DNA of 64,000 bases, from positions 1,728,001-1,792,000 of the forward strand of contig OY969554.1 in NCBI GenBank assembly GCA_963700985.1, given 5' to 3'. The translations under genes were made by a program, and so were the position numbers. The DNA comes from an uncultured Chlamydiales bacterium. GTDB taxonomy: Bacteria; Chlamydiota; Chlamydiia; Chlamydiales; Rhabdochlamydiaceae. The notes under the pieces were generated by a model. That model searched no databases, was not told where the DNA came from, and worked only from the letters and a program-made list of their open reading frames with translations. Below are positions 2,275 to 61,890 of this stretch, one piece after another. Every line of letters starts with the position of its first letter. The first letter of the stretch is position 1.

Positions 2275-3432
2275 TTAAAAATCAAAACTCATACCCGCAT
2301 TGAAGCCTGCAAAGGAGAGATCTCCATTGAGTTGATCCATGCTAGCAAAATGGTCGCCTCCAAATTTGATGAGCTTGTTTTGGCCCCAAAAATAGTGTTG
2401 TTCCCAGCCAGCCCAAATTCCAAAACCCCAATTATCCTCGTTAAAGGTGGTGTCATAGCTTAAGCCCAGTGCCAAATCAGCCACAGGTCTGCAGACTTGG
2501 AATCGATCGTAGAAAGTATCTTGAGTCACAATATTGCCAGCTGTGGTTTCAAGCGTGTGATTATGCGTAACTTTGAATCTTCCCCAAAGAGCTGAAAGTG
2601 CGAGTTTGGCGTAGACGCTAACTCCTGCACCTACTCCCCAAACGGTATCTACGCCACCACGCAGGCCCATGCCCCAGAAGTTATTGCGCATCGACAGATA
2701 GTCTGTCTCGTAGGGAGTCCCAAAAGTAGAGATAATTGGGGAAAGGAAATTTCCGCCTTCATATTCAATACGGAATTTCTGGTGGACCCACGCACTTCTC
2801 AGGCCAGCATGAGGACGCACAGTTACCCACTTGCTGACATAAAACTCACGACCGAGTTCGAGATCGAGAATATTGAGGTTGATCCTCCAATGTTTTCCTC
2901 TAGCTTCAGTGACGTAAGGATTGTCTGTAACGGTGGTATCGATATCATCGAGATTGACATCTTTGGGGAAGAAAATAGGTTCAAAGATTTCTGGGCATAT
3001 ACAATCTGTTCGGTCGTGTTTATTATTGCTATGGAAGCGTGCCCAAGAGAGATCGAGATCCCAACCATCATGCGGAGTATTGTACCCTATGCCCAAGCGG
3101 AAACCGGCGTTCCATTTTCCTTTGAAATGTTCCGATGTTCCATGAATTGGCGCACTCGGCAGAGGAATTTGATCGAGTTGTATTGCATAGTCTAAGTTGT
3201 CTTCTCTCGCTCTCCATACAAGGACTTCTCCTGTGATGAAGATATCTACGCCATCCTTTACGACGGGCCGTGCTGGAGGATTGATCTCTGTGGAGCTTGT
3301 TCTTTCTTCGACAGCGGTAAGGCGCTTTTCAAACTCGCGCATCTGCGCATCTTCGGCAGCATTTAAGCTTGCAGTGAATGCAATAAGAGAAAAAAGAGCT
3401 GTTGACGCACTTTGTTTTAGATATCGATTCAT
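2275..3432 (-). CDS. MOMP-like/Lpg1974-family outer membrane porin
   Basis: Paralog of 1079-2245 with the same motifs; ends SFDF. Confidence 0.85.
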   Translation of the reverse strand: MNRYLKQSASTALFSLIAFTASLNAAEDAQMREFEKRLTAVEERTSSTEINPPARPVVKDGVDIFITGEVLVWRAREDNLDYAIQLDQIPLPSAPIHGTSEHFKGKWNAGFRLGIGYNTPHDGWDLDLSWARFHSNNKHDRTDCICPEIFEPIFFPKDVNLDDIDTTVTDNPYVTEARGKHWRINLNILDLELGREFYVSKWVTVRPHAGLRSAWVHQKFRIEYEGGNFLSPIISTFGTPYETDYLSMRNNFWGMGLRGGVDTVWGVGAGVSVYAKLALSALWGRFKVTHNHTLETTAGNIVTQDTFYDRFQVCRPVADLALGLSYDTTFNEDNWGFGIWAGWEQHYFWGQNKLIKFGGDHFASMDQLNGDLSFAGFNAGMSFDF

Positions 3433-45158: not shown

Positions 45159-45223
<65 letters not shown>

Positions 45224-45231
<8 letters not shown>

Positions 45232-45276
45232 TATTTTTTTCCCAAAAAAAATTTGGACAAAAGCAAGCCAACAGTT
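45224..45276 (+). repeat. 53-bp direct repeat, copy 1 (attL-like)
   Basis: Identical to 52526-52578; starts within the tRNA-Phe 3' acceptor strand. Confidence 0.92.
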
Positions 45277-45316
45277 AGGGCGGTCTATCCGGGTTCTAAT
45301 TAATGATCAAACGAGA

Positions 45317-45617
45317 TCAGCTATACGCGTGGATCAGCTTTGCAAGAGTTTTAACCGTAGGTAATGCCACCCTTTTTTTGAACTGAATACACTGTAGAGC
45401 GCGCAATAAAAGCTTCTTTAGCGAGATGCGATTTACTTGCTGCCTCGAGAAAGGTTGCAATCACTTCCATTACGCCATCTGAGTCACCTTCTTTGAGACA
45501 TTCCCATATGGCACGACCAATGAAATCTTCATTGAGAAGTTCCTCAGTTGGGTTAATTTCTCTGACGCGAGCGTTTTCTTTAAGCATCATAATACCTCTA
45601 TCTCTCGAACGAGACAT
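45317..45617 (-). pseudogene. Addiction-module antidote-like HTH protein with one frameshift
   Basis: ...LAKEAFIARSTVY then, after a 1-nt shift near 45362, PTVKTLAKLIHAYS*, completing an HTH. Confidence 0.65.
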
Positions 45618-45711
45618 TTTCCTGGTTCCTCTTGGTCTGCCAAGAGGGTTCCCGAATGCCCTTTTCGTAAACTTCCCCTGTTTTTTCTTGTTTTATCAGG
45701 CATATCTATGT

Positions 45712-47084
45712 CTATGGGATTTCATGGTACATATCATGATGTTGGGCGTAGCCGGTTCCAGGAGGCGACATGGGGCGAGCGCCTTTGGAACGTAAGAGAT
45801 CGGAAATTGATTTGTTCTTTTCAGAAATAGCAACCTGGTAGGGTGTTAATCCACTTTTATCTGCAGAGTGGATATCAGCCCCTAGGTTAACCATGCGTTT
45901 GACTAGTTCAAGCTTTTTACGTGGTTCTAAGAGGGCTTTGATTAATAATTGCAAGGGGCGATGTCCATTCCAAGAAACGTCATTAACATTAGCGTCCGGC
46001 GTTTAAGATTTTCGTCACGGATTGAACTAATTCATCTCCTTTTCTCTTGATTAAAGCTTCTCCTAAAGAAGGTAATGGTGTTATGAGATTGATACGATGC
46101 TCTAGATTGGACAAAATGTCAGAATATCATCAAAACTGACGGGTTCAGTAAGATACATATCCCGCATCAACTGGTAATCACGTCGCAATTCAGGCAGTCT
46201 TTCAGCTCTAGGAACAAGGCGAAAGGTTCCAGGTTTGGCTTGGGTGTAGTTTGCCGACGAATTACCAAAGAATAGATTTTTCCATGAAACGACTCTGTCT
46301 CGAAGATCATGGTGATCAATAGCTTTGATTGCTTCTGGATGATTTGCAAGTACCGCAGTATCAGCATAATGACGGGAAAATCTATCTCGCATTGGTTTAT
46401 CAAGTGGTCGATGATATTCTGCATGTAGAATCGTAGCTTTTTCCCAGAAAGTTCGCTCGATCTCTAGAGCTATGACTTCACATTGCCAATCAGGAAATGC
46501 TGTGGGGAAAACCTCAGCAATCCAAGGTCGTATTGGATGACGTCCAGTGGGTTGCTGATCAGTTAGAGAGCCGAACTCAAGTTTTACAGAACGTTTGATA
46601 TAGGCAAATCCTGTTGGTAGCGATGATGGATAATGAAAAAGAATTACTGGTGAATTGGTTTGAGGGTCTTTTAAAAACTCGAATCTTGCCTGCTCATTTT
46701 TTCCTAATACGTCCAATGTCAATGCTTCTAACGCCGGCATAATCTGAGTTTGAACAGCAATTTCACATACCTCTTCAGCTTTTTTCCACCATTTATCAGC
46801 TTGACTGCGATTTGCAGCGGTTTCAGGAAGTCCAAGAAAAGAGGGGACAGCGAAAGATCAATATCTTCAGAAAACCGATTGATCGCGCCAAATACCTTTG
46901 ATAGCGAGGTGCCTCCTTTGAATACGAGGCTATCAGCAAATTCTGACTCGAACAGAATACCGAGTAACCAGCATACCCAAAAATCTTTTTCCATGATTAC
47001 AGGGGATATATTTCTCTGAATGGCAGCTTGTTCAATGTACAGGCGTCGTTCGTCAGAAGATAATTTTAAAAAGTTAAGTTTCAC
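45712..47084 (-). pseudogene. AbiEii-family nucleotidyltransferase toxin with C-terminal ankyrin repeats, split by three single-base indels
   Basis: EKDFWV, FKGGTSLSK, RFSEDID, RTFWEK and SRHYAD motifs; the frame-corrected C-terminus runs into GANVND...GHRPL and GADIHSADKSGLTP ankyrin repeats. Confidence 0.75.
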
Positions 47085-47085
47085 T

Positions 47086-47708
47086 TCAAGCCTCCTCGGC
47101 TAATTCCCTGAAAATAGAATGCATCCATTCTGGCGCAAGTCGAATATCTTTGAGTAGTTCTTGTCGTTTATTCAGTGGAATAATCCGCTTTAAATGTTCA
47201 AGCCGTTCTGCGGTGACATTTTCTTTGCCTAATTCACGGAGAGCTTGAACCAGAAGTCCACTGAGTCGACCTGCCATCGCCATATTTTTGGGGGTTGTTC
47301 GCCGAAGCTGAATGGTTGTTGCGCCGATTTTTACCGTTCGGCTTGGCCCATCTGTCAGAAATACAACTTTAGCTGGAACCTGTTCGGATAGTCCTAGGAT
47401 ATTTGCTGCATAAGCCCCGTTGGTTGAATACGTGTGCAATCGCGGCCAACTAATGCTTCTGCTATTTTTTCTGGAGACGGTTGAAGTTTTCCAAGCTTAG
47501 GGTGTTCTTTAGGAAAATCATATATTCCTCTTGCAAGGCGGCGAATAGTTCCTTTTCGAACGAGTCGATGAAGAACAATATCGACAGCTTGTCGACTACC
47601 AAGATTTAAGAAATCCGTTGGAACAAATACAGCACCATATCCACGGGCATTTATAGCCTTAAGTATTTGATAATCAATGCTTTTTGGTTTTTTTTGATTA
47701 TTCTTCAT
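47086..47708 (-). pseudogene. AbiEi-family (DUF6088-like) antitoxin with one frameshift
   Basis: wHTH RLVRKGTIRRLARGIY; after a shift in a G run near 47416, GAYAANILGLSEQVP; corrected length 207 aa. Confidence 0.8.
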
Positions 47709-47841
47709 GTAAGAAATGTTAACATGTTTTTCTTACAAATGCAAGGATTTTTCGGTTTTTTTTGCTAACCATATGCAATACACTCATAATCAATAAGTTG
47801 ATTGTTTGTAATGTTAGAAAAATTGCTACGTTTTTCTTACA
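47708..47841 (-). promoter_or_regulatory. AbiE promoter with two inverted-repeat operators
   Basis: TGTAAGAAA-N12-TTTCTTACA (47708-47737) and TGTTAGAAA-N12-TTTCTTACA (47812-47841); minus-strand TTGCAT-N17-TAACAT-N7-ATG. Confidence 0.7.
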
Positions 47842-47996
47842 AAACGAAAAAAATAGGCAGAAAAGTACTCATCAGAGGATCGGCGAAGCTAGACCTTTAG
47901 ATTTTTATAAAGTATTTATTTTTATCCAAGCCTAGAAATCAACCTGGAAAAACCCAGAACCCCAGTTTTTCTAGGTTCATTAGTCTTAAAAATATT

Positions 47997-48371
47997 CTAA
48001 TAAGACTTGCCTAGCTCCTCTTGCTCCAGCAATGCAAGTTCTTCATCAGTCAGAGCCGTTTCTACCAACTCAATAGGCACGCCTTGCTCTTCAATCATGG
48101 CAACGCGGTATCCTTTTAATGGGCTATAAGGACCAAAAAGAATTTTACATCCTTTGATCTCAGCATCTAAATCATCAACTTGAAAGGCGATATGAGGGAC
48201 TTGGGTTACCAATTCTGGGAGGCCGTGTCCTTCTGGAAAACGGTGCCATTGAATATGCCATTTATTTCCTTCGAAAGGGGTAGAGTAAAACTTAAAGCCA
48301 CCTACTTCAACGAGACTTTCGTCTTGTCGCTTTTCGGTAGTCGGAATTCCATAGTGATGGTATTTGCGCAT
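47997..48371 (-). CDS. VOC/glyoxalase-family protein
   Basis: YHHYGIPT, PHIAFQVDDLD and PIELVE motifs. Confidence 0.8.
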   Translation of the reverse strand: MRKYHHYGIPTTEKRQDESLVEVGGFKFYSTPFEGNKWHIQWHRFPEGHGLPELVTQVPHIAFQVDDLDAEIKGCKILFGPYSPLKGYRVAMIEEQGVPIELVETALTDEELALLEQEELGKSY

Positions 48372-48406
48372 TTAAACCTGCTCTTTTGAATTAATGGATT
48401 TATTGT

Positions 48407-51400
48407 TTATTTATCCAATTTTTTAACCCAGGCCATGTGGTCGTCAAAAGCTTGTTCTTGTGAGCGGATATGCTCTTCGGGAATAACGCCGTCTACCGCA
48501 GCGTCGGCAATCGTCTTCTTATACTTAATCCGCTCATATCGCATTTGGCACCAAGAACGCCTTTCTCCCTGAGATTCTATGAATGTAATGGGGATAACAA
48601 TTTCAACTTGTTTTTTTGTTTGCCCTTGTCGATATACGCGACCGTACAATTGCTCAAATTCAGCTCCCGTCCAGGGAAGAGATGCGATAATTACACGGGA
48701 ACATACTTTTTGGAGACCATCAACTCCTGTGCTGATACATCTTGAAGCTATTAAAACATCAATATTTCCGTTGATAAAATTGTCCAAAGATTCTTTTTCC
48801 TGACCTGAGAATACTGCAACAGTATAACCTGCTTCTATAGCGGCTCTTCTGATCATTTCAACTATAGAATCGACATAGTGACAGTAAATCAGAGTTTTCT
48901 TCGTAATCTCTTTTAATATTATAGGAAGCTTGACTTTCATAAGGCTTGTTTCAAGACTCAAAATGTCCCTTTTACCTATTTGCTTTATTTCCGAAATGAG
49001 CTGCGAACAATCCAGCTCAACGCAGCGAATAGCTAAGCTGGCTGTATATTTGGGTTTAATTCTCACTCCGTAGCGAGTTAGCATTTGATAGAGCGCCATG
49101 CAATTTTGCATTGTATTCTTGGTCTCTATCCCATCGAATGATTGTCCTGTAATGAGTTCAAGTAGGGTTTTCCCTTCATAAATGTTGTTGATAACTGGAG
49201 TCGCTGACATTCCCAAGACATGTAGAGCAGGATTGATTTCTCCTAATTTCTGTAAGAACCAAAAAACATTATTCTTTCTAATGGACATCTTGTTCTTTTC
49301 GCGTTGCTTTGTGAAGTGAACTTCATCCAAGATGCAAAAGTCTATCTGATGATTATTAATCAAGTTTTGCAGCTCATGCCTGCTAAAAGGTTGTTGGAAG
49401 TACTCATAATTTAAAACTAGGTAGACTGGTGTTCCAAAATCAACGCTAGATGTTCGCAATGAGTCTTTGATGACCACTTTAGCATGAGGAAATGCGCGAG
49501 GAATGGTCTTTTCCCATTCTGGAATGACATTATTAGGGCAGATGATTACTGTTACCTTTGCCCCAATTAGTTTCGACGCAATTACAGCGGAGAGAGTTTT
49601 CCCTGCACCGGTTCCAGACCAATTACCAAGTCTTTTCTCTTTGAGCATTTTAAAGCAAATAAGTCGTTGCATGAGATTTGGAGTGATGCTTTGATCTGCA
49701 ATACTAGGGAGTATTAAGCTGCTTGCGCCTTCGTATTCCTCTAAAAATGCAGATTTAACTTCTTCGGAGTATACATCTCCCTGAAAGTTCTTAATTTGTT
49801 GCACAGCCACGTGCTCATCAATAGCGGCATGCTGCCAACTTTTTAGTTTGGCAGAAGCTATAAAGAACTGCACAGCATCCTCATCTGTCACTATGGAAGC
49901 GGCTCTGTCCAAAGCTTCTAAAGCGGCCTGTGCTTGTATATTTGGAAGAATATTGAGAGGATCTGTCTCATCAGGCTGAGTATTTTCAAGAGCGGTTGAT
50001 ATACTTTGCTGCTTCTCTTGTTCCTGATCAGCGTTAATTAATTCCTGTGACAAGAAATCATCGACTTTTGAAGGCGCTCCTTCTGAGAATGCTATCAATT
50101 CATCCTTCGTGAGTTTTTTACTTTGGATAGCTTTTGCAATAGCCTTCGCTTGCCCATTGCTACTTAACGCACCACTTCTTTCAAAAAGCACAAATAATTC
50201 GGCGGGGGTTAAATTTGGGATATGATTGGCTAATGATTTTACAAAGAGTCGCATGCGATCAATAGTCCATCTTGAACAAAAAGGGCAGCCTCTTTTTTCT
50301 AGCTCCCGTTCGAGAATAAATGTGAGCTTCCCACTCGTGGTTACAGTCTTTTGAACACAACCAGAAAGCTTTCTTATCGCTTCCAGGTGAAACATCGAAG
50401 GGAGTTAAAGAACCATTCTTTGTAGGATGCCATTCAGTTAGCTATTTGAGGATAAACAGTTGCAAGGGAGTTACTATTTTGAACTTTTCGATTTATGCAA
50501 AAAGGGCATCCAGAACCTTTGTCTCTATATGTGCCCGCTCTATCACATACTATGGCATCCCAGCGATGGGAAGAGTTGCTCGTGCATATCCAAAATAGCT
50601 TTAGATTTAGAGGTAAAAGTTATTTGGTCTGGGAATAGTCCATGTTGAGCATTCCTTTCATAGTCCCATTCTTTTGTCAAAGACAGGATGAGTTTTTAGT
50701 AAGCAATTTGCATCTGTTGCTTTTCGATTCAAACAAATAGGGCACTCGCTTCCTCTCGTCACATTTCTCTTTAAAGCTATCACGCGACTTTTGACTGTTT
50801 GTTCCCATTCATGAGAAGAATTTTTTTCACAAACCCAGACGGCTTTGAAATTAGAGCCGGATAGAAACAGTTTCTGCTTTTTGTGGGAGATTTTTTGTCT
50901 TATGCCATTGACCTGCTAATGAGGAGTATAATGCTTTTAATCCATTACATTCGGGGCAGAGATTTTTATTACCCTTCGTTAAATTGTTTACACCTTGTAA
51001 ACGAGAGGCTTCGTAAGAATGTGACTGAGCGCAAAGCCACCATATAGGTTTGCGATGGTTAGGAGATACTTGTGTTAGGTCGAGGTTAAAGTTTTTTTTC
51101 TTGATCTATCTGACTTACAAGCTCAGGGTATTTAGAGAGGAGGCTGTCTTCAAACGTTACTTTGTGGCCTGAGCAAAACGGGCAGCCATTTCCTGCGGTT
51201 TTTGCACCAATCACCGCTTCCCACTCATGCCCTACCCCCTCAGCGCAAATCCACCAGGCTTTTTTGCTGCTAAATGGACTTACGTCAAATGGAGTGATGG
51301 TTTTATTTTTTGTAGGATGCCAGTGCCTTGCTACGTCAGGTTTTAAGATCCCCAAGCTGTTGTTCTTAGTAACACGCCTGCCAGAACAGAAAGGGCATCC

Positions 51401-51590
51401 TCTGCCTCTGATTGACTCTGTCACAGACGGTTGCTTCCCATACATGATCTTCGCCTTTAGGGCATTTCCACCAAATCTTACGACTACTTCCCAAGGTAAT
51501 CGTTTCTTTTGAAAGGCTTTGGTTTTTTTCAGGGTGCCACTCCTCGATAAGTTGAGGAAATTTGCTAAGAGGAAACTCATTCGTTTTCAT
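48407..51590 (-). pseudogene. Six zinc-ribbon repeats fused to an SF2 (DExH) helicase; seven +1 frameshifts in the 5' third
   Basis: Six EWHPxKN...WxC...HxW...CPxC repeats; helicase motifs GTGAGKT, DEVH, SAT and QLYGRVYRQGQ in ORF 48407-50395. Confidence 0.8.
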
Positions 51591-51691
51591 TAGCAGCGTC
51601 TCATTTTTCTTGCATTAAAGGTAATTTATGATACAGTTATCTGCAAAAAAATCAATGGAATTTTCAAAACTGATATAAGAAGGAGTTCGGA

Positions 51692-52151
51692 ATGAAACCT
51701 ATAACTTTCCATCGTGCAATTAAATTTCTCCTAACAGAGCGAACAGTAAGAAGCTACGAAGAGCTAGTTAACAAAAAACTTCAAATTTTAGATGCTATAG
51801 CCGGGCAGCAGGGATGGTGTGACTTTGAAGAGGAGTATTGTATGGGGACAGTGTAGAACGTCAGACAAAATGATGAAGAAGCGAAGTATCTATTTCAAAA
51901 TCTATTCAAGATAAATGATGTAAAAGAATTTGAGGATAAGTATGGAGTGCAGGTTAGTTGCGAACTCTGTTCCGCTTTCACAAGGTGGGGACTGGCGGGA
52001 ATATTCAGTAGATACAAGGGGTAAGCTCCAATTTCGAATAGAAGAGAAATTGAAAAAATCTTACCCGTATCAACAGAACTCATATACTGCAAAAGGCGTT
52101 TTGATTGTTGAGTTACTCGACCTTGCATTCGCGGGTTTAAAAACGATGTAG
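51692..52151 (+). pseudogene. Fragmented hypothetical gene
   Basis: AGGAG RBS plus ATG at 51692 (MKPITFHRAIKFLLTE...); coding-like sequence continues across frames to the stop at 52151. Confidence 0.4.
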
Positions 52152-52525
52152 AGATTTCCCGATCTTATTTAGGCAGCTCGCGGTTGATATCGATCCGCTT
52201 TTTCAACAGAGTAGTTTTGACTCTATTTTACTGGTTGATGCAATGAACCTATTTGCTAAAGATGCTGAAAATTCAACGTACAAACTAAAGTGATCTTTAT
52301 AGCTAAAAGTATGAATGCGCTGACAGCGCTAGTCATTGGGGAGTCATTGGTTCTATTATGTAATAGGGAGTGATTGAGCAAGGGCTTTCTTTATCAAGAA
52401 GCCCTTTTCGATGTCAAACCGCTCTTTTCCCACTGATTTGTGAGGTAGGGCTTCACTTTGATAAGGGGTTCTAGCTCATAGAGAAGCTTCATTCCCTCGA
52501 TGAATTGGTTCGAGAACGCTCCGGC

Positions 52526-52578
52526 TCTGGCCATATTTTTTTCCCAAAAAAAATTTGGACAAAAGCAAGCCAACAGTT
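52526..52578 (+). repeat. 53-bp direct repeat, copy 2 (attR-like) with degenerate tRNA T-arm remnant
   Basis: Identical to 45224-45276; preceded by TGGTTCGA-gaacgc-TCCGGC, resembling the tRNA T-arm. Confidence 0.92.
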
Positions 52579-52743
52579 TGGCTTGCGTCTGGCTGCGGAT
52601 ACACGAAGAAGGCCCGGTGGGCGTTTGCAGTGCGGAGCAGGTGAGCGGGTAGCGAACCGGCTTTCAGGACGACGACGCACGAAGTGCGCATCGCCTGAAA
52701 GAATTCCAGTTCTGATCAAAATTTTCGAAGAAAATTAACGTGC

Positions 52744-53814
52744 TCAGTCCACTTCAGAATATGTTTTTGCTATAACAGGATAGACGGCGATATGCGTGTC
52801 TGCAGCCCGGTATTGAGCTACGACTTCTGATTCGTCATAGCGTCCATCTTTGGTTTTGGGGTGAGGAGGAGCATCACCGACGAGCAGAACCGCACGTTTC
52901 GCTTTTGGATCCCAGGACAGGTCGTTTTTAGCCGCAAGAAGAGCATCGAGAACTGCTTCAGGCAGATCGCCACCGCCATAAACGGTAAGGCTCTGCACGG
53001 CTTTTTCGACTTGCTTTAAGTCTTTGGTAAAGGGGGTATTCACCCTATTTAAGAAATCGTTACTGTCACGGTATTCCAGAATAGCAACCCGAATATTTTT
53101 CCTTTCCTGCAGCTGCTCTAAAAATTTAACCAAATTATCCTTTACCTGTTTGATATAAGCTCCCATGCTTGCGGTAGTATCAAGCACAAAAACTAGATCA
53201 AGCGGTTCGTTTTCGTCAGAATCTTTCAGGATTTGCACGAAAGCCTTCTCGATTGCAGGTATGAAGTCATCAGGAGAAGGAGAAAGGATATCGAGGCCCC
53301 CCGTCTCAATGGCTAAGCGTTGAAAGGCCTCTGCTACAGTATTGCCTGAAGAGCTAGCCACTAAAGTGCCGTTAAGATTTTTTGGCGAGATCGCAGCCCC
53401 AGGAGTATATCTAATGCTTGATTGCTTAAGAGGAAGACCCTCAAACATAGTTTCACAACGAGCTGTTAATTCACATTCTCCTTCCTTAGGCAAATAGGTC
53501 ACGCTCGGTGGATTGCATCTTAACTTATAGGATCCGTCTGGGATCTTACACACAGGAGGTTCGTCGCATGGTGTACTCGCATAAGCACCGGGCAGCGAAA
53601 GAGTGGGCAATTTAGAGTAAACATAGGATGCTACGCGACCGGGCAGGCTCGTAATCCAATCTTCGATCCATCCACCAACTTGTGCGGCCGCATCAACGCA
53701 TGCCACTTCGTGTTGCATCTGATCAAAGTAGTCTAATCGGCCTGAGTTTGGAGAGAGAGAAAAATCTGAATAGATACTTGAAGAGTTAGAAGGATCAGGT
53801 CTTAATTCGATCAT
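52744..53814 (-). CDS. vWA-domain protein with an upstream Cys-rich CVNH-like segment
   Basis: DLVFVLDTTASM MIDAS motif, GGGDLPE and VGDAPPH. Confidence 0.85.
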   Translation of the reverse strand: MIELRPDPSNSSSIYSDFSLSPNSGRLDYFDQMQHEVACVDAAAQVGGWIEDWITSLPGRVASYVYSKLPTLSLPGAYASTPCDEPPVCKIPDGSYKLRCNPPSVTYLPKEGECELTARCETMFEGLPLKQSSIRYTPGAAISPKNLNGTLVASSSGNTVAEAFQRLAIETGGLDILSPSPDDFIPAIEKAFVQILKDSDENEPLDLVFVLDTTASMGAYIKQVKDNLVKFLEQLQERKNIRVAILEYRDSNDFLNRVNTPFTKDLKQVEKAVQSLTVYGGGDLPEAVLDALLAAKNDLSWDPKAKRAVLLVGDAPPHPKTKDGRYDESEVVAQYRAADTHIAVYPVIAKTYSEVD

Positions 53815-54046
53815 AGTCCGTTACTCCGGCTGTGGTTGTGACAAGGATTGGACTCGGCAAGAAACAATTCGAATCATTTCTTTTCTTCCGCATCCAAATT
53901 CGGTTAAATGAAGCAGCAGCAGTCTACCAAGAGTTCTCAAATAAGATCAAGGGATTGAAAGCGTTGGTAATGCCAAAATGCTTACAAAACAATGATCTAA
54001 GAAGCGATGAGGATAGTCGGCATTTATACCGAAACAACAAAGCCTT

Positions 54047-54363
54047 ACGAAACTCTCTCTTAGAGGTAATTAACGCAGTTTATGCTCTTTACTGAGAGGA
54101 GATTTCCGCTGGCGGCACATTAGAAGGAATAAATTCTGCGGCCTTGGTTCTTTTGCCATTTTTTATAGAGACTATGGTCACGGGCTTGATGGGAACGCGG
54201 CTGCCGTTGAGATAACTGATTTCTCTGGTAACTCCCAAAAAGCCTTTTGTTTCACTGAGCGCCTTGAAGACATCGCCATCTAGGGCACGTTTTTGCGCAT
54301 CGAGTAGAAAATTGCCTGTATCAAAGCCAAGTGCAGCGAAAGCGTTTTCTGGGGGAACTCCAT
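54047..54363. repeat. 317-bp direct repeat; displaced 3' fragment of the ABC substrate-binding gene
   Basis: Aligns without gaps to 55381-55697 at roughly 90% identity (by eye); encodes GVPPENAFAALGFD...PPAEISSQ*. Confidence 0.9.
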
Positions 54364-54374
54364 GTGCAAACAGT

Positions 54375-54414
54375 TTGACAACGGGTTAGAATGTGGTATA
54401 TACCTAGTATATAC
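54375..54414 (+). promoter_or_regulatory. Promoter with tandem palindromic operators
   Basis: TTGACA-N16-TATATA overlapped by GTATATAC-cta-GTATATAC. Confidence 0.6.
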
Positions 54415-54432
54415 TGATTAAGGACGAAAAAC

Positions 54433-54903
54433 ATGTTTATCCACGACGTCTGTTCAGCCTTGGATAAGGCTAAAGTGCCCTATGCTATAGTTGGGGGATA
54501 TGCAGTGGCACTCCATGGGGCAATGAGAGGAACTGTCGATGTTGATGTCGCTATCCAGTGGTCTCTTAAAAATCTCCAAAATGCAGAAAAGGCATTGAAA
54601 CAATTAAGACTTATTTCACTGATTCCGGTGACCGCAGAAACTGTCTTTCATTTTAGAGAGGAATATATTCAAAATCGCAACTTAATCGCCTGGAATTTCT
54701 ATGACCCATCTAATCCGCTTAATCAGGTCGATATTATCATCAACTATAACCTCAAAAGCCTTCGTGAGACGAAGAAAGTCGAAACGGCTTTTGGGTCTAT
54801 CCGAATTTTATCATTGAGCGAACTGATAAAAATGAAAAAAGCCTCGGGACGGCCTCAGGATTTGGAAGATGTAAAAGCTTTAAGTAACCTATACGATGAA
54901 TAA
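54433..54903 (+). CDS. Pol-beta-like nucleotidyltransferase (DUF6036-like), putative toxin
   Basis: YAIVGGYAVALHG, RGTVDVD and KKASGRPQDLED motifs. Confidence 0.82.
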   Translation: MFIHDVCSALDKAKVPYAIVGGYAVALHGAMRGTVDVDVAIQWSLKNLQNAEKALKQLRLISLIPVTAETVFHFREEYIQNRNLIAWNFYDPSNPLNQVDIIINYNLKSLRETKKVETAFGSIRILSLSELIKMKKASGRPQDLEDVKALSNLYDE

Positions 54904-55138
54904 AACGATCCAGTTCTTCACAAAAGAATACCTCGAAAGTTGCAAAGGGATGACCCCAGATCAAATTATTGAATTTCTTGAAAATTACCGAATGCTCTTC
55001 TCGAAGACTCGAGAAAAAAGCCAATTGATTAGTCTAAAAATTGAGCCGGCTCTTCTTAAAGCTTTCAAGCAGAGAGCGCAATTGGCAGGCATTCCTTATC
55101 AAACGCAGATTAAAAAACTTATGAAGGAATGGCTCTAG
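54896..55138 (+). CDS. CopG/BrnA-like ribbon-helix-helix protein, putative antitoxin
   Basis: ISLKIEPALLKAFK...GIPYQTQIKKLM; overlaps the NTase stop. Confidence 0.8.
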   Translation: MNKTIQFFTKEYLESCKGMTPDQIIEFLENYRMLFSKTREKSQLISLKIEPALLKAFKQRAQLAGIPYQTQIKKLMKEWL

Positions 55139-55212
55139 TACCCCAATTTAAAAGTTTTTGATGAACTCGTTTTGAGGTATAGAAGCCATTCACTTTTCGA
55201 CCTCATTCGTTT

Positions 55213-55380
55213 TTACTGATCAACGGCAAACTCCTTCCAGGCAAGCTTGATCTTTTCAGCTCTGGCTCGCAGCTCGTGATCAGAATGGACCATCTGGAGA
55301 GTATTAATCGCGCACCATGAAATAGACTTCTCTAACAGTGTTTTCAGTTGGTTTTTGTCTGAAAATTGAGTTGAGACCGA
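55213..55380 (-). pseudogene. Start-less 3' gene remnant
   Basis: Open frame SVSTQFSDKNQLKTLLEK...KLAWKEFAVDQ* cut at the repeat boundary. Confidence 0.35.
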
Positions 55381-55697
55381 ACGAAACTCTCGCTTAGAGA
55401 TGATTAACGCAGTTTATGCTATTTACTCAGAGGAGATTTCCGCTGGCGGCACATTAGCAGGAATAAATTCTGCGGCCTTTGTTCTTTGGCCATTTTTTAT
55501 AGAGACAATGGTCACGGGCTTGATGGGAACGCGGCTGCCGTTGAGATAACTGATTTCTCCGGTAACTCCCTGAAAGCTTTTCGTTTCAATGAGCGCTTTG
55601 AAGACATCGCCATCTTGGGCACGTTTTTGCGCATCGAGTAGAAGATTGCCTGCATCAAAGCCAAGTGCAGCGAAAGCATTTTCTGGGGGAACTCCAT
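55381..55697. repeat. 317-bp direct repeat, copy 2
   Basis: Matches 54047-54363. Confidence 0.9.
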
Positions 55698-56716: not shown

Positions 56717-59218
56717 TTAAGGAGGACAAGGGATGGCGCCAGGACAAGATTGAACGTTAGTGATTGTTCCTGAGGTATTGATGGTGCCGACGTTAACGGA
56801 GTCTACATCGCATGGGCTTAGATTGAAGACGCCATCGCCCGGACTGGTCAACTGATAATCGGTGCTGCTGTTGTTGCCAGTAAGTGTTAGGCAGGCTGTA
56901 GGGCCTGTTAGGCTTGATCCAACAAGTACGGCTAAGCCTGTATTGTCTGATAGTGTATTGTTAGTAACAGAGGCCGCAAGGCTTGTATATTGCTCAATAT
57001 CAAGACCCGAGGCCGCATTTGAGGAGAGGTTTTGACAATTGCTGATCGTGTTGTCTGAAACATTCAATGCCAAAGAATCGATACCATCGGGGGAAAAGCT
57101 GAGGATTCCTGTCCCTTCGCAACTGTCTATTTTATTATTCAATATGGTTAGGTTAAGCGTTGAGAAATCTTGATTTACGGCAATGCCATTAGATGCGTTT
57201 CCGATATCTGTAATGGTATTGTTGTTGATTGTGATGTTACCGGTTGAGGTAGATCCCGAGCTGATTACCGCGATTGCATTGTCGTAGCATTCCGTAATTC
57301 TGTTGTTTGTTGCAAGCAGCGTCAAATCATCGACTGGAGTTGCAAGGACTGCGGCAGAGCCTCCATTATTTGACATGATGTTTTTAGATGCCGTGACTTC
57401 AAGAGTGGTAAATGCGCCCGAAGTATGCATGTAAAGAGAGTTCGATGTGTTACCGGAGAACGTATTGTCTCTTAAAGCGATTGCGCAGTTGTTGACGGTT
57501 CCACTCGAAATAACAGTTACGCTCGATCCCAAGCTTGCCTGAGATCCTGTTCCGTTATTTGTAATCGCATTGTTTAATATGCGGATATCGGCATCGACGA
57601 CGTTATTGAGGTCAAATCGGATGCTCCCGGTTGTATTGTCGTTAAAGACGTTATTCTCAATATGAGCGCCAAAGACATTGCTATTTGCCGCTATTTCCAA
57701 AGGAACACTAGAGATAGAAGTTTGGCCAGTAAATGTATTATCTGAACAATCAACTTCGGATGTTGCATTAAGAGTCAAAAAAATTCCGTTGACGTTGTCT
57801 ACAAATTGATTGTTCGTGATGGATATTGAGGCATTGTCAGGGAAGGAAGCCTCGATCGTATACGTAGTGGTGTTTTCGAATATGCAAGAAGATACTTCCA
57901 AGTTTTGAGGATTAATTCCAAAGATGGCGTCATTCATTGCAGATGTAATAGTAAAACCGCTTATGGCGTTATTGGTCGCGAGGGTAATCGCATTGCCCGC
58001 TGTATTGATATTTGTATTTGTAATCGTAGGCGAGGAGCTGCTTTGCGCTGGGATGGAGATTGTTCCTGCAGTCGTTTGTATCAACTGGTTGACACCAGAG
58101 CCCCAAAATTTCTGATTGGCTTGCAAAGCAATTCCTGAATCCATTCCAGTTGTAGTTCCATCGCCAGGAAATACATAAATGACGTCGTTAGGTCCTGAAT
58201 TGGTTTGAGCTAAGCCAAGCGTCGGGTAGGGGCTTTCATAAGTGCCGCTGGAATGGCTTGTGTTATCTACAAATACAAAGAAATAGGGTTGGCCAGTTGC
58301 AGGATCGATCGCTGTTGCGTTTTTCTTTCCTTTCCCCACGACTATGATTTCCTCTCTTCCTACGGGCTGGACCATTCGAGAGACGATTACATCAGCCATC
58401 CTGCAAGAATTGCAGGCACCTGTTTTTTTCACACGCGACCTGCCTCCAAAAGGTAGTGTAAAGGTAAGCTGCCCCTGAAATTTGTTGTGAAACATGCGGT
58501 CGTAAGAATCGCTTATTTCAAGCGTGATATACTCTTTGAATTTACCACTTATCCGTGCCTTGCCACCCCAGATATTATGGCCGATCTCACCGATGTAGTA
58601 ATAGGGTCCTGCTGCAGCATAGAAATCAAATAAACGCGATTTGGCAAAGTGAAAGCCGAGTTCAGCATCTGCGCCTTTCATGGCGAACTGATATTTTTGA
58701 GATAGGATTAGGTTATGACCAGAAAAATGGTCGAACTTCGAGTTGTAAGGAGAGGTAATTTTTTTACCGAAAGGCAGATAGCCATTAATCCGGAAGTCCC
58801 AAAGCGTACCAAGCGTTTCTAATCCAACACCTACTTGGTTATAGTTACGCTTTTTTGTATTTCTGTAATCGTAGTAGGCATTAATTCCATAAGTTCTGCA
58901 GCCCCAAATCCCTCGCATTCCGGTGCCTGCATTGGCTGCCCATCTGCCATTATCGAAGACGTGACCGCGTACGTCCATGAAAGGCATGACTGGACATTGG
59001 TTAGGATCTGGAGCTAGAAATGTTTCAAGGGTCGTGTAACCACGATTGTAACCAATGCCGCCGCCTTCGATATGTCGGGCCGCAACGCGATAGTGTTTTT
59101 CCCCATCCTGACAGATTTCTGAAGATGCTTGTTCTTTTTCATTGCTAAACACGGCACTTGCAGTAGAGCAGGCGAGAAAAAGAGCAAGCGAATAGGAGGG
59201 CATCTGGGGCATAGGCAT
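56717..59218 (-). CDS. Inverse-autotransporter beta-domain protein with beta-helix passenger
   Basis: GINAYYDYR and DFRINGYLP barrel motifs; Asn/Thr/Ser-rich NNxI repeats. Confidence 0.85.
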   Translation of the reverse strand: MPMPQMPSYSLALFLACSTASAVFSNEKEQASSEICQDGEKHYRVAARHIEGGGIGYNRGYTTLETFLAPDPNQCPVMPFMDVRGHVFDNGRWAANAGTGMRGIWGCRTYGINAYYDYRNTKKRNYNQVGVGLETLGTLWDFRINGYLPFGKKITSPYNSKFDHFSGHNLILSQKYQFAMKGADAELGFHFAKSRLFDFYAAAGPYYYIGEIGHNIWGGKARISGKFKEYITLEISDSYDRMFHNKFQGQLTFTLPFGGRSRVKKTGACNSCRMADVIVSRMVQPVGREEIIVVGKGKKNATAIDPATGQPYFFVFVDNTSHSSGTYESPYPTLGLAQTNSGPNDVIYVFPGDGTTTGMDSGIALQANQKFWGSGVNQLIQTTAGTISIPAQSSSSPTITNTNINTAGNAITLATNNAISGFTITSAMNDAIFGINPQNLEVSSCIFENTTTYTIEASFPDNASISITNNQFVDNVNGIFLTLNATSEVDCSDNTFTGQTSISSVPLEIAANSNVFGAHIENNVFNDNTTGSIRFDLNNVVDADIRILNNAITNNGTGSQASLGSSVTVISSGTVNNCAIALRDNTFSGNTSNSLYMHTSGAFTTLEVTASKNIMSNNGGSAAVLATPVDDLTLLATNNRITECYDNAIAVISSGSTSTGNITINNNTITDIGNASNGIAVNQDFSTLNLTILNNKIDSCEGTGILSFSPDGIDSLALNVSDNTISNCQNLSSNAASGLDIEQYTSLAASVTNNTLSDNTGLAVLVGSSLTGPTACLTLTGNNSSTDYQLTSPGDGVFNLSPCDVDSVNVGTINTSGTITNVQSCPGAIPCPP

Positions 59219-59427
59219 CTTTGTTTTTATCTACGTATGCTTAAAAGATTTTTTAGGATCAATTTTTTAATTGTTCAAAAGACTTTGTGGAGTGGACAAA
59301 AACGATAAGATTTCATACAGCTTTTCCCAGCCAAAATTTCATGAAGTAACCAGTAACCGGATTTGATAAAAAGAAAGTCAAAGAGAGGCTCGATGTCTGA
59401 CTTCGAATTTAACTGAACATCAAAATC

Positions 59428-61890
59428 TTAGGGGCTACATGTTCCTGGAGTCGGTGCTGTTCCCGTAGTTTGCGTAGGCGTCGGAACGTTACTTCCGCTT
59501 GAGGTGTCTAGAGTAAAGGTTCCACCTTGATTATTGAGTATGATGGGGGCAGTAGCTGCGTTGTTAGTTAGGGTAAGGCAGGTGACATCGAAGTTTTCCA
59601 CGTCAATGCCAGAACCTGATTCATCAGCAGAGATCGCATTTGCAGAAATGAGGGCATTCAATGGGCCGGTGTCGGTTTCCAAGTAGATGCCGGTTGGGCT
59701 TGTGCCTTGGGCAGAGATTGAGTTGTTCAAGATGCTTAAAGAAGAACCGCTTTCGGAAAAGGCGGCAATGCCATATGGGCCAGATCCGGTTACAGAAACA
59801 GGATTATTAGAGATGATTCCGGTTGTTACGCCACTCATAGAAATGCCAATCGCAGTGGAGCTGGAATTTGAGATAGAGATGGCGTTACCGGTTACTGTAG
59901 CAGAAAGTGGGGAGTTAACAGAGATGCCTGAGCTGCTATTTGGAGCATTTATCGCATTTCCTGTAATGATGGTCGTATCATTTGGAGCACTTGAGGTGAC
60001 AAAGATTCCATTCTGTGAAGAGTCAGGTACATAAATTGTGTTGCCACTTATTTGAGATGTAAGAATGCCTGTTGATGATGTAGTTTGTGCATAGATACCA
60101 GAGCTGTTGCTAAACGCGCTGATGTTATTATTCAATATGCTCGCATTCACGATGTTGCCGGCACCCGCTTGTGCCAGGATGGCTCCATGACCATCTCCTC
60201 CAGATGCGGAGACTGTGTTGTCTGAAATAGTGGCATTGATTAAAGCGGACTCTCCAAGGATCCAAATCGCTCCAGAAAATCCGTCGCTTGTAGCAGAGAT
60301 GTTATTATCGGTAATTGATGCATTAATAGATGAGGTCAGCAGACCATCCAATCCATTGCGTATGAAGATGGTATTGGCAGTGCTAGTGGCGGTATTTCCT
60401 GAAATGGTGGTGTCCAAGGTGTCTGTTAAAATGGTCTGAAGAGCAATAGAGGGTCCTTCAGATGTGATTTGATTATTGGCCATGAGTGTAGTGCCTCTCG
60501 CAATTAACGAAATTCCCGTCGCACCGCTTCCGCTAGCTACGTTAATGCTATTATGTCGAATGGTGCCTCCCTCGGTAGAGAAAGTGCCGGCATTCACATC
60601 ACCACTTGCAATCGCATAATTGACGCTGCCAAAGAGATTGAAGCCTGCAACTTCACAATTGTTGCCTAGTAGAACGATTTGTGAAGCGCCAGCTGTATTT
60701 GTGAGGGAAGGAGAGCTCTTTGATTGTGGATGAACGGTCACATTGCCCACAGTGGTGAGAAAGGAGTTAGAAATTCCAGATCCCAACAACCTCTGATTGT
60801 CTTGAAGCGTAATCCCTTGATTAAGTCCGGTGGTAGTGCCATCTCCAGGATATACATAAATGATGTCATAAGGCTTCGAATTTGTTTCACCTAAAGCAAG
60901 TGTCGGATAGGGGCTTTCAAAGGTGCCATCAGAATGGCTTGTGTTGTCGACAAACACAAAGTAAAGAGGCAGGCCAGTAAGCGCATTTATGGCTAGGAGC
61001 TCTTTCTTTTTATGCCCAACAACGATGATCTCTTGTCTTCCTACGGGCTGAACCATTCTGGAAGTAAGCGCATCGGCCAATTCGCAAGAGCTACGACATC
61101 CTTTTTTCTTAACGTGAGATTTTCCGCCGAAAGGAAGTGTGAGGGTAAGCTGTCCCTGAAATTTGTTATGGAACATGCGATCGTATGAATCGCTTATTTC
61201 AAGCGTCACATACTCTTTGAACTTAGCGTTGAGCCTGGCCTTGCCACCCCAGATGTTACGTCCGATCTCACCGATGTAATAATAAGGGCCTGCTGCCGCA
61301 TAAAAGTCGAATGATCGAGATTTGGCAAAGTGAAAGCCGAGTTCTGCATCTGCACCTTTCATGGCAAATTGATACTTTTGAGAGATGACCATGTGATGGC
61401 CAGAAAACTCATAAAATTTCGTGTTGTAGGGCGATGTGATCTTTTTACCAACAGGTAGATAACCATTAATGCGGAAATCCCAGAGCGTACCGAGAGTTTC
61501 TAATCCCACACCTACTTGGTTGTAGTCGCGCTTTTTCGTGTTTCTATAATCATAATAGGCATTCACTCCATAGGTTCTGCATCCCCAGATTCCGCGTAGC
61601 CCTGTGCCGGCATTAGCTGCCCACTTCCCATTATCGAAGATATGGCCGCGTACATCCAAAAAGGGCATTACAGGCCAAAGGGTGGGATCTGGAGCTAGGA
61701 ATGTTTCAAGGGTTGTATAACCACGATTGTAGCCTATGCCGCCGCCTTCGATATGTCGGGCCGCAACGCGATAGTGTTTTTCACCACTCGGACATGCATC
61801 CGATGAAGACTCAGCAGAGCTATCTGCAAAAGCCACAGAAGTAAAACAGATTAAAGATCCGGCGATTGCTTTTGCTAAGAAGCGTGTCAT
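59428..61890 (-). CDS. Inverse-autotransporter beta-domain protein with beta-helix passenger
   Basis: Paralog of 56717-59218; signal peptide; SGNTI/NNxI repeats. Confidence 0.85.
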   Translation of the reverse strand: MTRFLAKAIAGSLICFTSVAFADSSAESSSDACPSGEKHYRVAARHIEGGGIGYNRGYTTLETFLAPDPTLWPVMPFLDVRGHIFDNGKWAANAGTGLRGIWGCRTYGVNAYYDYRNTKKRDYNQVGVGLETLGTLWDFRINGYLPVGKKITSPYNTKFYEFSGHHMVISQKYQFAMKGADAELGFHFAKSRSFDFYAAAGPYYYIGEIGRNIWGGKARLNAKFKEYVTLEISDSYDRMFHNKFQGQLTLTLPFGGKSHVKKKGCRSSCELADALTSRMVQPVGRQEIIVVGHKKKELLAINALTGLPLYFVFVDNTSHSDGTFESPYPTLALGETNSKPYDIIYVYPGDGTTTGLNQGITLQDNQRLLGSGISNSFLTTVGNVTVHPQSKSSPSLTNTAGASQIVLLGNNCEVAGFNLFGSVNYAIASGDVNAGTFSTEGGTIRHNSINVASGSGATGISLIARGTTLMANNQITSEGPSIALQTILTDTLDTTISGNTATSTANTIFIRNGLDGLLTSSINASITDNNISATSDGFSGAIWILGESALINATISDNTVSASGGDGHGAILAQAGAGNIVNASILNNNISAFSNSSGIYAQTTSSTGILTSQISGNTIYVPDSSQNGIFVTSSAPNDTTIITGNAINAPNSSSGISVNSPLSATVTGNAISISNSSSTAIGISMSGVTTGIISNNPVSVTGSGPYGIAAFSESGSSLSILNNSISAQGTSPTGIYLETDTGPLNALISANAISADESGSGIDVENFDVTCLTLTNNAATAPIILNNQGGTFTLDTSSGSNVPTPTQTTGTAPTPGTCSP

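Follow-up and report, generated by a model that had tools for sequence, protein, structure and literature searches.

The AbiE system of Streptococcus agalactiae and Lactococcus, composed of AbiEi and AbiEii, was reportedly described by Dy et al. in 2014 as a type IV toxin-antitoxin and abortive infection system. Nucleotidyltransferases (NTases) of the pol-beta type carry an N-terminal motif I of the pattern hG[GS]..Dh[DE]h, and the C-terminal motifs III and IV supply a lysine and an aspartate (K189 and D211 in MenT3) that are needed for toxicity. AbiE is summarised in sections of PMC7450476 that also treat the role of motif I in DUF1814 toxins; in those sections, DUF1814 NTases of the MenT type are stated to extend the 3' ends of transfer RNA (tRNA), blocking translation, and AbiEi is stated to repress the operon and counteract the toxin. 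The present analysis concerns a related locus in a 64,000-nucleotide stretch of DNA from an uncultured Chlamydiales bacterium (contig OY969554.1, forward-strand positions 1,728,001 to 1,792,000), the whole of which is referred to as the window. At 45712..47084 on the minus strand, the window holds an AbiEii-family nucleotidyltransferase toxin gene with a C-terminal ankyrin module, present as a pseudogene and recognised from its open reading frame (ORF) pieces, from Pfam and from alignment with five intact genes.

The locus resembles AbiE in being a two-gene operon, with an upstream antitoxin of the AbiEi family carrying a winged helix-turn-helix (wHTH), a downstream DUF1814 NTase toxin, and an inverted repeat over the promoter that would fit autoregulation. 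Unlike AbiE, its toxin carries an extra C-terminal extension of ~125 residues, comprising a linker and the ankyrin part, beyond the canonical end at ~335; the antitoxin is of the short DUF6088 type, and the operon copy in the window is decayed to a pseudogene. The same Pfam family includes the Mycobacterium tuberculosis toxins MenT3/TglT (Rv1045) and MenT4. MenT3/TglT is the best non-ankyrin structural match found with Foldseek (template modelling (TM) score ~0.5), and motif I aligns with that of MenT4 (6y56). The MenT proteins differ from the chlamydial toxin in showing ~12-14% identity to it in structural alignments and in having no ankyrin part, and the tRNA substrate of the chlamydial enzyme is a prediction from homology.

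The toxin gene is spread over four pieces on the minus strand. Piece 1 (47084..46728; 118 amino acids (aa)) encodes the N-terminal part with the pol-beta-type motif FKGGTSLSK..RFSEDIDL, its frame being lost near 46842. Piece 2 (46740..46102; 212 aa) encodes the NTase core up to ..SFDDILT, with the frame lost near 46119. Piece 3 (46114..45989; 41 aa), which corresponds to residues 325-365 of intact homologues, encodes the last helix SNLEHRIN, the linker LITPLPSLGE and the N-cap helices of the ankyrin domain, and loses its frame at 45995. Piece 4 (45712..45991; ORF 45954..45712 of 80 aa, in a frame open from near 45991) encodes two ankyrin repeats, NGHRPLQLLIKA.. and SGLTPYQVAISE.., and the C-cap tail SPPGTGYAQHHDMYHEIP, followed by a stop. 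The amino acid identity of piece 4 is 87.5-94% to the intact genes with a short linker and 75-76% to the intact genes of loci L020 and L026.

Alignment of the DNA with the five intact homologues, to which the window gene is 85-88% identical, places three internal indels in the toxin gene: a base is lost near 46842 and another near 46119, and an extra one is present at 45995. The initial annotation had put these lesions at 46838, 46115 and 45994, within four bases of the aligned positions. The single 457-aa ORF that it proposed is recovered as 457 codons when the gene is read through, and every peptide that it quoted is found in the window ORFs. The stop at 45712-45714 ends the frame two codons short of the end in four of the five homologues. 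Interrupted by three frameshifts, the window toxin copy has no uninterrupted coding sequence, and it is very probably a pseudogene of a real fused family.

Beyond what had been annotated initially, the upstream antitoxin gene is frameshifted as well. This AbiEi-family gene (DUF6088/AbiEi_4 wHTH; 47086..47708, minus strand) is also a pseudogene, split by one missing base near 47416 into the ORFs 47708..47394 and 47439..47086, whose products match positions 1-86 and 84-170 of the 172-position DUF6088 profile, along with the AbiEi_4 winged helix. Six minus-strand ORF pieces, two of antitoxin and four of toxin, therefore lie between 47708 and 45712, with the antitoxin stop one base ahead of the toxin start. 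Since both genes are frameshifted, the operon is a relic in this genome, and its inactivation as a whole is predicted to result from four frameshifts of one base each, three of them in the gene for the toxin and one in that for the antitoxin.

The enzymatic identity of the toxin is supported by profile and motif evidence. Pfam AbiEii (PF08843; cut-off 22.5 bits) matches piece 1 with 54.3 bits over profile positions 5-43 and piece 2 with 72.0 bits over positions 58-236 of 238, and an intact homologue scores 121 bits with the same family and 3e-93 with the PADLOC AbiEii profile over residues 2-334. Piece 1 encodes motif I, FKGGTSLSKVFGAINRFSEDIDL, which does not vary among 29 fused proteins and aligns with the motif of PDB entry 6y56. 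K216 (FWEK) and D242 (RHYADT) are invariant too; they lie in a region where the structural model is weak, and are candidate counterparts of MenT3 K189 and D211. By analogy with the MenT toxins, we consider it reasonably likely that the chlamydial NTase acts on tRNA.

The continuation of the gene beyond the usual toxin end, already proposed in the initial annotation, is borne out by comparison with toxins that lack the extension. Relatives without the fusion, 335-338 aa long, terminate 3-6 residues beyond LE.RIN, and residue 334 is the last one covered by the PADLOC AbiEii profile, so the window gene continues past the point, near residue 334-338, at which such toxins normally terminate. Between the NTase and the ankyrin part lies a poorly conserved linker of ~16-45 residues.

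The ankyrin assignment falls below Pfam thresholds in the window copy, where piece 4 scores 20.8 bits with Ank_4 (cut-off 22.7), and in the intact reference protein P0001, which scores 20.3 bits with Ank_2 (cut-off 27.3), while some relatives exceed the cut-off (P0276, Ank_4, 29.8; P0286, Ank_2, 31.2). A profile built from the 29 fused proteins matches ankyrin and designed ankyrin repeat protein (DARPin) chains of the PDB over residues 352-447, with per-stretch E values down to 2.4e-5. In the AlphaFold2 model of a homologue, residues 340-440 form paired helices with predicted local distance difference test (pLDDT) values of 88-94, the overall mean being 72. Foldseek matches this part to DARPins and V-1 with a root-mean-square deviation of 2.2-3.2 over 80-100 residues, the V-1 match being at 3.2 over 100 residues. 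Model and Foldseek matches agree in showing the helix-turn-helix plus hairpin repeat fold.

In the model of the domain, a pair of N-cap helices precedes two full repeats, and the conserved PPGxGY..Y..Y tail folds into a C-terminal capping helix. The two ankyrin repeats initially annotated are accordingly present in the model as two full repeats, but they are accompanied by an N-cap and a C-cap helix that the annotation had left out. The conserved tail SPPGTGYAQHYDMYHEIPLP aligns where a third repeat would have its hairpin and first helix, and because it occupies this place it is read as structural. A short linear motif or a secretion tag was considered for the tail and rejected, as in the profile alignments and the model the tail begins a third repeat and makes a capping helix. 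There is a weak match of the module region to the PADLOC candidate PDC-M72A (4.5e-7) and to the N-terminus of MzaA, two weak matches that suggest a precedent for ankyrin in defence genes. A search of the ESM Atlas returned generic ankyrin clusters only.

Intact fusions were found in relatives. A search with piece 2 across 301 genomes of the phylum, 300 of which were scored, gave an AbiEii match in 64 of the 300, and 29 related loci with 74-91% amino acid identity were located outside the window's genome, in many families of the same order. The fusion is uninterrupted in nine of the 29 loci (L003, L005, L008, L009, L011, L014, L015, L020 and L026), with genes of 457-478 aa lying in open frames of 457-485 aa. 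Two loci (L022 and L030) have the ankyrin part in a broken gene, six (L004, L013, L016, L017, L018 and L027) retain only a linker or N-cap stump, and the remaining loci have a stop just after LEHRIN. At L018 (genome G196), the frame leads directly from the beginning of the linker into the final residues of the tail, apparently through an in-frame deletion of the whole ankyrin domain. In addition, 28 database protein clusters of 449-488 aa align end to end with the L014 protein (reference P0001) at 72-95% identity. The AbiEii plus C-terminal ankyrin architecture put forward in the initial annotation is therefore real, conserved and intact in relatives; a stop after LEHRIN combined with a lack of full-length fused homologues was looked for as evidence to the contrary, and full-length fused homologues were found to exist.

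The extension also bears the signature of selection. Across 36 pairs of the nine intact genes (dS ~0.87), the NTase has a median ratio of nonsynonymous to synonymous substitution rates (dN/dS) of 0.10, the ankyrin repeats one of 0.15 and the tail one of 0.11, the latter two values indicating that the ankyrin extension is a selected coding region under purifying selection. A chance or neutral fusion is ruled out by these two values together with the recurrence of the module on other toxins.

This recurrence, which had not been part of the initial annotation, means that a portable module has to be explained rather than a single odd fusion, since the same ankyrin module sits on several toxin families. 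A search with the last 124 residues, the module alone, found it on P0276 (411 aa) and its fragment P0135 with 77% and 68% module identity, on P0283 (402 aa) with 71%, on P0288-92 and P0297 (412-424 aa) with 44-47%, and on P0184 (318 aa) with 53%. These groups are mutually distant and match Pfam AbiEii, as established by scanning P0276, P0135, P0283, P0288 and P0184 and by the precomputed PF08843 annotation for the other members of P0288-92/P0297. The module is further present on P0275, P0278, P0280, P0281 and P0284 (373-376 aa; 71-77% identity), whose N-terminal domain is a sub-threshold AbiEii-like NTase, and on the Fic proteins P0286 and P0287 (45-49%).

At E <=1e-8, the phylum-wide genome search detected the module in 48 of 300 genomes and 36 of 165 genera, and in none of the 29 genomes of one family. 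Thirteen of 18 further classified loci encode Fic proteins, 317-330 aa in length, of which one is truncated where its contig ends; L046 (453 aa) and L052 (424 aa) are further AbiEii types, and L045 and L060 are fragments. Two representatives of the Fic loci, L053 and L047, were scanned against TIGR02613 and match the whole profile at 148.8 and 137.2 bits (cut-off 124.4), the module following it. Mobile mystery proteins A and B (TIGR02612/TIGR02613) are a helix-turn-helix (HTH) and Fic pair, and the chlamydial Fic proteins carry a related module with 37-48% identity and a PPGxGY..YY..Y cap. In all eight Fic loci examined, an XRE-type HTH gene of 153-189 aa, resembling mobile mystery protein A, lies directly upstream. 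Mobile mystery protein B differs from the window gene in having a Fic rather than an NTase catalytic fold, and represents a sister case of the same domain fusion. The family combining this Fic protein with a C-terminal ankyrin-cap (loci L047-L051, L053-L059, L061 and L062) seems to be a further fusion that has not been described.

Each module-bearing toxin whose upstream gene was examined has an antitoxin-like or HTH partner, and among the fusions found the module is always on the toxin and never on the antitoxin. The window's genome itself contains a second such locus, L032, at contig positions 1012437-1015739, with an intact 204-aa AbiEi-like gene and an intact 400-aa AbiEii-ankyrin gene of a different subfamily. 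This pair lies on the minus strand at L032:1438-2640 and 2631-3245, overlapping by 10 bases.

A prokaryote-wide scan of one genome per species with two peptide patterns of the type A module, the type of the window's cassette, reaches type A modules only and returned 24 loci (L063-L086), all in metagenome-assembled genomes. Fifteen have a chlamydial record title, six a Verrucomicrobia-type label, and one each is labelled Acidobacteria, 'uncultured bacterium' and Candidatus Acheromyda. Nine of the 24 module-bearing bins hence have non-chlamydial or unspecific submitter labels; either these bins are mislabelled or the module extends beyond Chlamydiota. Every taxon-named protein cluster with the module is chlamydial.

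An intact 207-aa homologue of the antitoxin matches the PADLOC AbiEi profile PDLC02226 with an E value of 7e-71, an AbiEi gene adjoins the toxin gene in all 29 related loci, and its conservation is equal in loci with and without the ankyrin part. Upstream, an inverted repeat, TGTAAGAAA-N12-TTTCTTACA, at 47708..47737 (no strand assigned) covers a promoter-like region and the antitoxin start codon, with a further arm ~100 nt upstream. All 26 related loci examined conserve its proximal arm, TGTAAGAA, and a second copy is present in most of them, 78-147 nt further upstream. Promoter inverted repeats are said, following Hampton et al. 2018, to be a feature of AbiEi autoregulation, and the repeat is probably a candidate AbiEi operator that fits such autoregulation. 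A scan for consensus promoters and terminators gave no more matches than the shuffled expectation.

The distribution of the module within the close clade was followed on a FastTree phylogeny of the NTase cores of 116 proteins, six of 122 having been excluded for lack of the end motif or a length of <300 aa. Thirty fused proteins are scattered among 60 plain, 11 remnant-bearing and 15 other-tailed ones, and one clade of 28 proteins is purely plain. Parsimony assigns 18 changes to the fused state, with well-supported branches forcing at least five, on a tree that is poorly resolved and may include recombination. Linker remnants occur in six of the 18 loci without the ankyrin part and also among numerous database proteins. 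The simplest reading of these sequences would be that the module was gained once or a few times and then truncated repeatedly.

In its working form, the operon would comprise the inverted repeat over the promoter, followed by a 207-aa AbiEi antitoxin-repressor and a toxin of ~459 aa, the first ~335 residues of which would be a complete AbiEii/DUF1814 nucleotidyltransferase. To judge from homology with MenT3, this enzyme would probably add nucleotides to tRNA 3' ends, blocking translation. The linker of 16-45 residues would lead to a compact ankyrin domain whose anatomy suggests that it binds a protein. The module would act as an intrabacterial adaptor tying the toxin to a protein partner, which may be a protein that triggers the toxin, for instance one linked to phage or stress, or may belong to the translation machinery; the module would set when or on what the toxin acts and would not be needed for antitoxin control. 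The conserved repeat and the adjoining AbiEi genes suggest that control of the toxin-antitoxin type has been kept. Independence from the antitoxin is suggested by the equal conservation of AbiEi with or without the ankyrin part and by the Fic fusions, whose HTH partner is unrelated. We assign a probability of roughly 0.55 to this explanation as a whole, a relic AbiE operon with ankyrin as an intrabacterial adaptor; the role of the module as an intrabacterial adaptor or sensor, considered by itself and from sequence features, is proposed more tentatively, at somewhat less than even odds.

Several observations weigh against this explanation. The NTase model is only moderately confident, with pLDDT values of 36-60 over residues 200-290, and the fold match to MenT3 is modest. 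The module has often been truncated or lost while the NTase stayed open, which makes it dispensable for, and accessory to, the basic toxin-antitoxin pair. The named module-bearing records are chlamydial, that is, from bacteria living inside eukaryotic cells, and the ankyrin proteins of intracellular bacteria are usually host-directed, which suits the alternative of a host-directed effector. Finally, the indels were read from the assembly, and the 22 indexed sequencing runs compared each contain at most 11% of the sampled words, so that the decay of the window copy is as reliable as the assembly itself. The assembled genome consists of one 2.07-Mb contig that may come from long reads, and all four lesions are single-base indels, as would be expected if they were sequencing or consensus errors in a gene and antitoxin that are intact in the organism. 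Such an artefact is nevertheless highly improbable: none of the three toxin-gene indels falls in a homopolymer run of four or more bases, genome completeness is 99%, and the four indels crowd into 2 kb while the flanking long genes (a 647-aa protease gene and a 662-aa helicase gene) and the second AbiE-ankyrin locus have uninterrupted frames. Other genomes, moreover, commonly hold broken or truncated copies.

The remaining alternatives concern the partner of the ankyrin domain; the initial annotation had suggested that the domain could be a sensor of phage or host proteins, or that the toxin could have become an effector. The module could serve as an internal regulator, binding the catalytic domain of its own toxin or the antitoxin, and thereby autoinhibiting the enzyme or turning a non-interacting type IV pair into an interacting one. 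Ankyrin domains are known in general to act as autoinhibitory or scaffold elements, and the restriction of the module to toxins would suit such a role. Its presence on unrelated folds (NTase and Fic) with unrelated partners (AbiEi wHTH and XRE HTH), however, makes a shared contact with the catalytic domain or antitoxin unlikely and a common external partner more likely; with the linker so variable in length and poorly conserved, and AbiEi no different in loci without the module, internal regulation is regarded as improbable. A host-directed effector, in which the module would aim enzymes derived from toxin-antitoxin systems (NTases and Fic) at a eukaryotic protein or compartment after secretion while the antitoxin provides producer immunity, is the main alternative, though still rather unlikely. 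The occurrence of the module across a phylum of intracellular bacteria, with all taxon-named clusters chlamydial, speaks for it, as does the attachment of one constant C-terminal domain to several enzymatic heads, which is the layout of modular effectors and polymorphic toxins. The weak best NCBIfam matches are the Legionella Dot/Icm effectors AnkH and AnkY, a similarity that is generic to ankyrins. Legionella AnkX is a Fic plus ankyrin effector, and Bartonella VbhT/VbhA gave rise to the Bep effectors, with VbhT retaining its cognate antitoxin. The chlamydial fusions resemble AnkX and VbhT in joining a toxin-type enzyme to a protein-binding or delivery domain, but differ in sharing only generic ankyrin or Fic similarity in sequence and in showing no association with an F-type type IV secretion system. 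An intrabacterial partner is favoured over a host target because the genes are kept in tight, putatively autoregulated toxin-antitoxin-type operons and their N-termini are collinear with unfused AbiEii and mobile mystery B proteins, with no added leader. TraU (PF06834) is found in four of 48 module-bearing genomes compared with 23 of 252 others, and is absent from the window's genome; delivery by a conjugative F-type type IV secretion system finds no support in this distribution. No secretion signal or secretion-system link emerged from N-terminal comparison with unfused toxins or from TraU, type III signals lying outside these comparisons.

According to a broader and rather doubtful reading, the ankyrin domain and its C-cap would constitute a chlamydia-specific plug-in adaptor, joined repeatedly to toxin-antitoxin toxins of unrelated folds (several AbiEii lineages and Fic) and redirecting them to one common protein partner. 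That partner could be a host protein, making the toxins effectors derived from toxin-antitoxin systems with the antitoxin as immunity, or a shared phage or stress trigger, making the module a sensor with exchangeable effectors. If this is true, no 'constant targeting domain, swappable toxin head' system assembled from toxin-antitoxin modules would have been described before in an intracellular bacterium.

AbiE and MenT toxins have been studied as plain single-domain enzymes, and here a whole clade carries a selected protein-binding domain that recurs on Fic toxins; this pattern points to a partner that would determine the time or place of toxin action. Little work has been done on toxin-antitoxin systems of obligate intracellular bacteria, and the identity of the partner could reveal phage or stress sensing, or how toxin-antitoxin toxins become host effectors. 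In agreement with the initial annotation, none of the papers recovered by full-text literature searches describes an AbiEii-ankyrin fusion in its main text, and the relevant passages of PMC9742256, PMC6364476, PMC10880633, 10.64898/2026.03.27.714854, PMC11077975 and PMC9118660 have the two domains only as separate genes. The chlamydial AbiEii-ankyrin toxin gene is real and apparently undescribed. Where database sources give the fused proteins a name, it is 'AbiEii/AbiGii toxin family protein', 'ankyrin repeat protein' or 'hypothetical protein', because Pfam scores of the ankyrin part stay under the cut-offs. What merits further work is the recurrence of a portable module, the window copy itself being a dead relic at a tRNA-Phe hotspot.

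The tRNA-Phe gene (GAA anticodon; 45159..45231, plus strand) marks the boundary between core genes and the variable stretch with the cassette, and ends a core block of fusA, rpsG, rpsL and the tail-specific protease gene. Among the 29 related loci, 15 have a tRNA gene no more than 1.5 kb away, which in six of them is tRNA-Phe. In the same-genus genome G031, the core block and the genes further on are conserved and a type D AbiE-ankyrin cassette (L052) stands beside tRNA-Phe, this different cassette at the same site indicating a hotspot of cassette exchange. Neither of the two genomes sampled from this genus gave a match to the type A cassette in the search with piece 2.

The variable stretch of the window extends over 45232-52400 and contains, besides the decayed cassette, a 124-aa ORF of no assigned family, a SNF2/ResIII-like helicase (48407-50395) and a DUF4379 zinc-finger protein (51086-51580). 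An 88-aa ORF at 45351-45703 (minus strand) has a weak HigA-like 'addiction module antidote' match (PF21716, E 5.6e-4, below cut-off) and is preceded by a 38-aa ORF that also adjoins the cassette in L005; from their sequences, the two may together represent another decayed toxin-antitoxin pair, lying between tRNA-Phe and the cassette. The region 50400-55400 has low coding density, includes a VWA-domain protein (52744-53814) and a DUF6036 nucleotidyltransferase (54433-54903), and may hold more decayed mobile or defence genes. At 56717-61890 on the minus strand, adjacent genes of 833 and 820 aa encode an inverse-autotransporter beta-domain, one of them a right-handed beta-helix as well, and by these predicted domains they look like adhesins.

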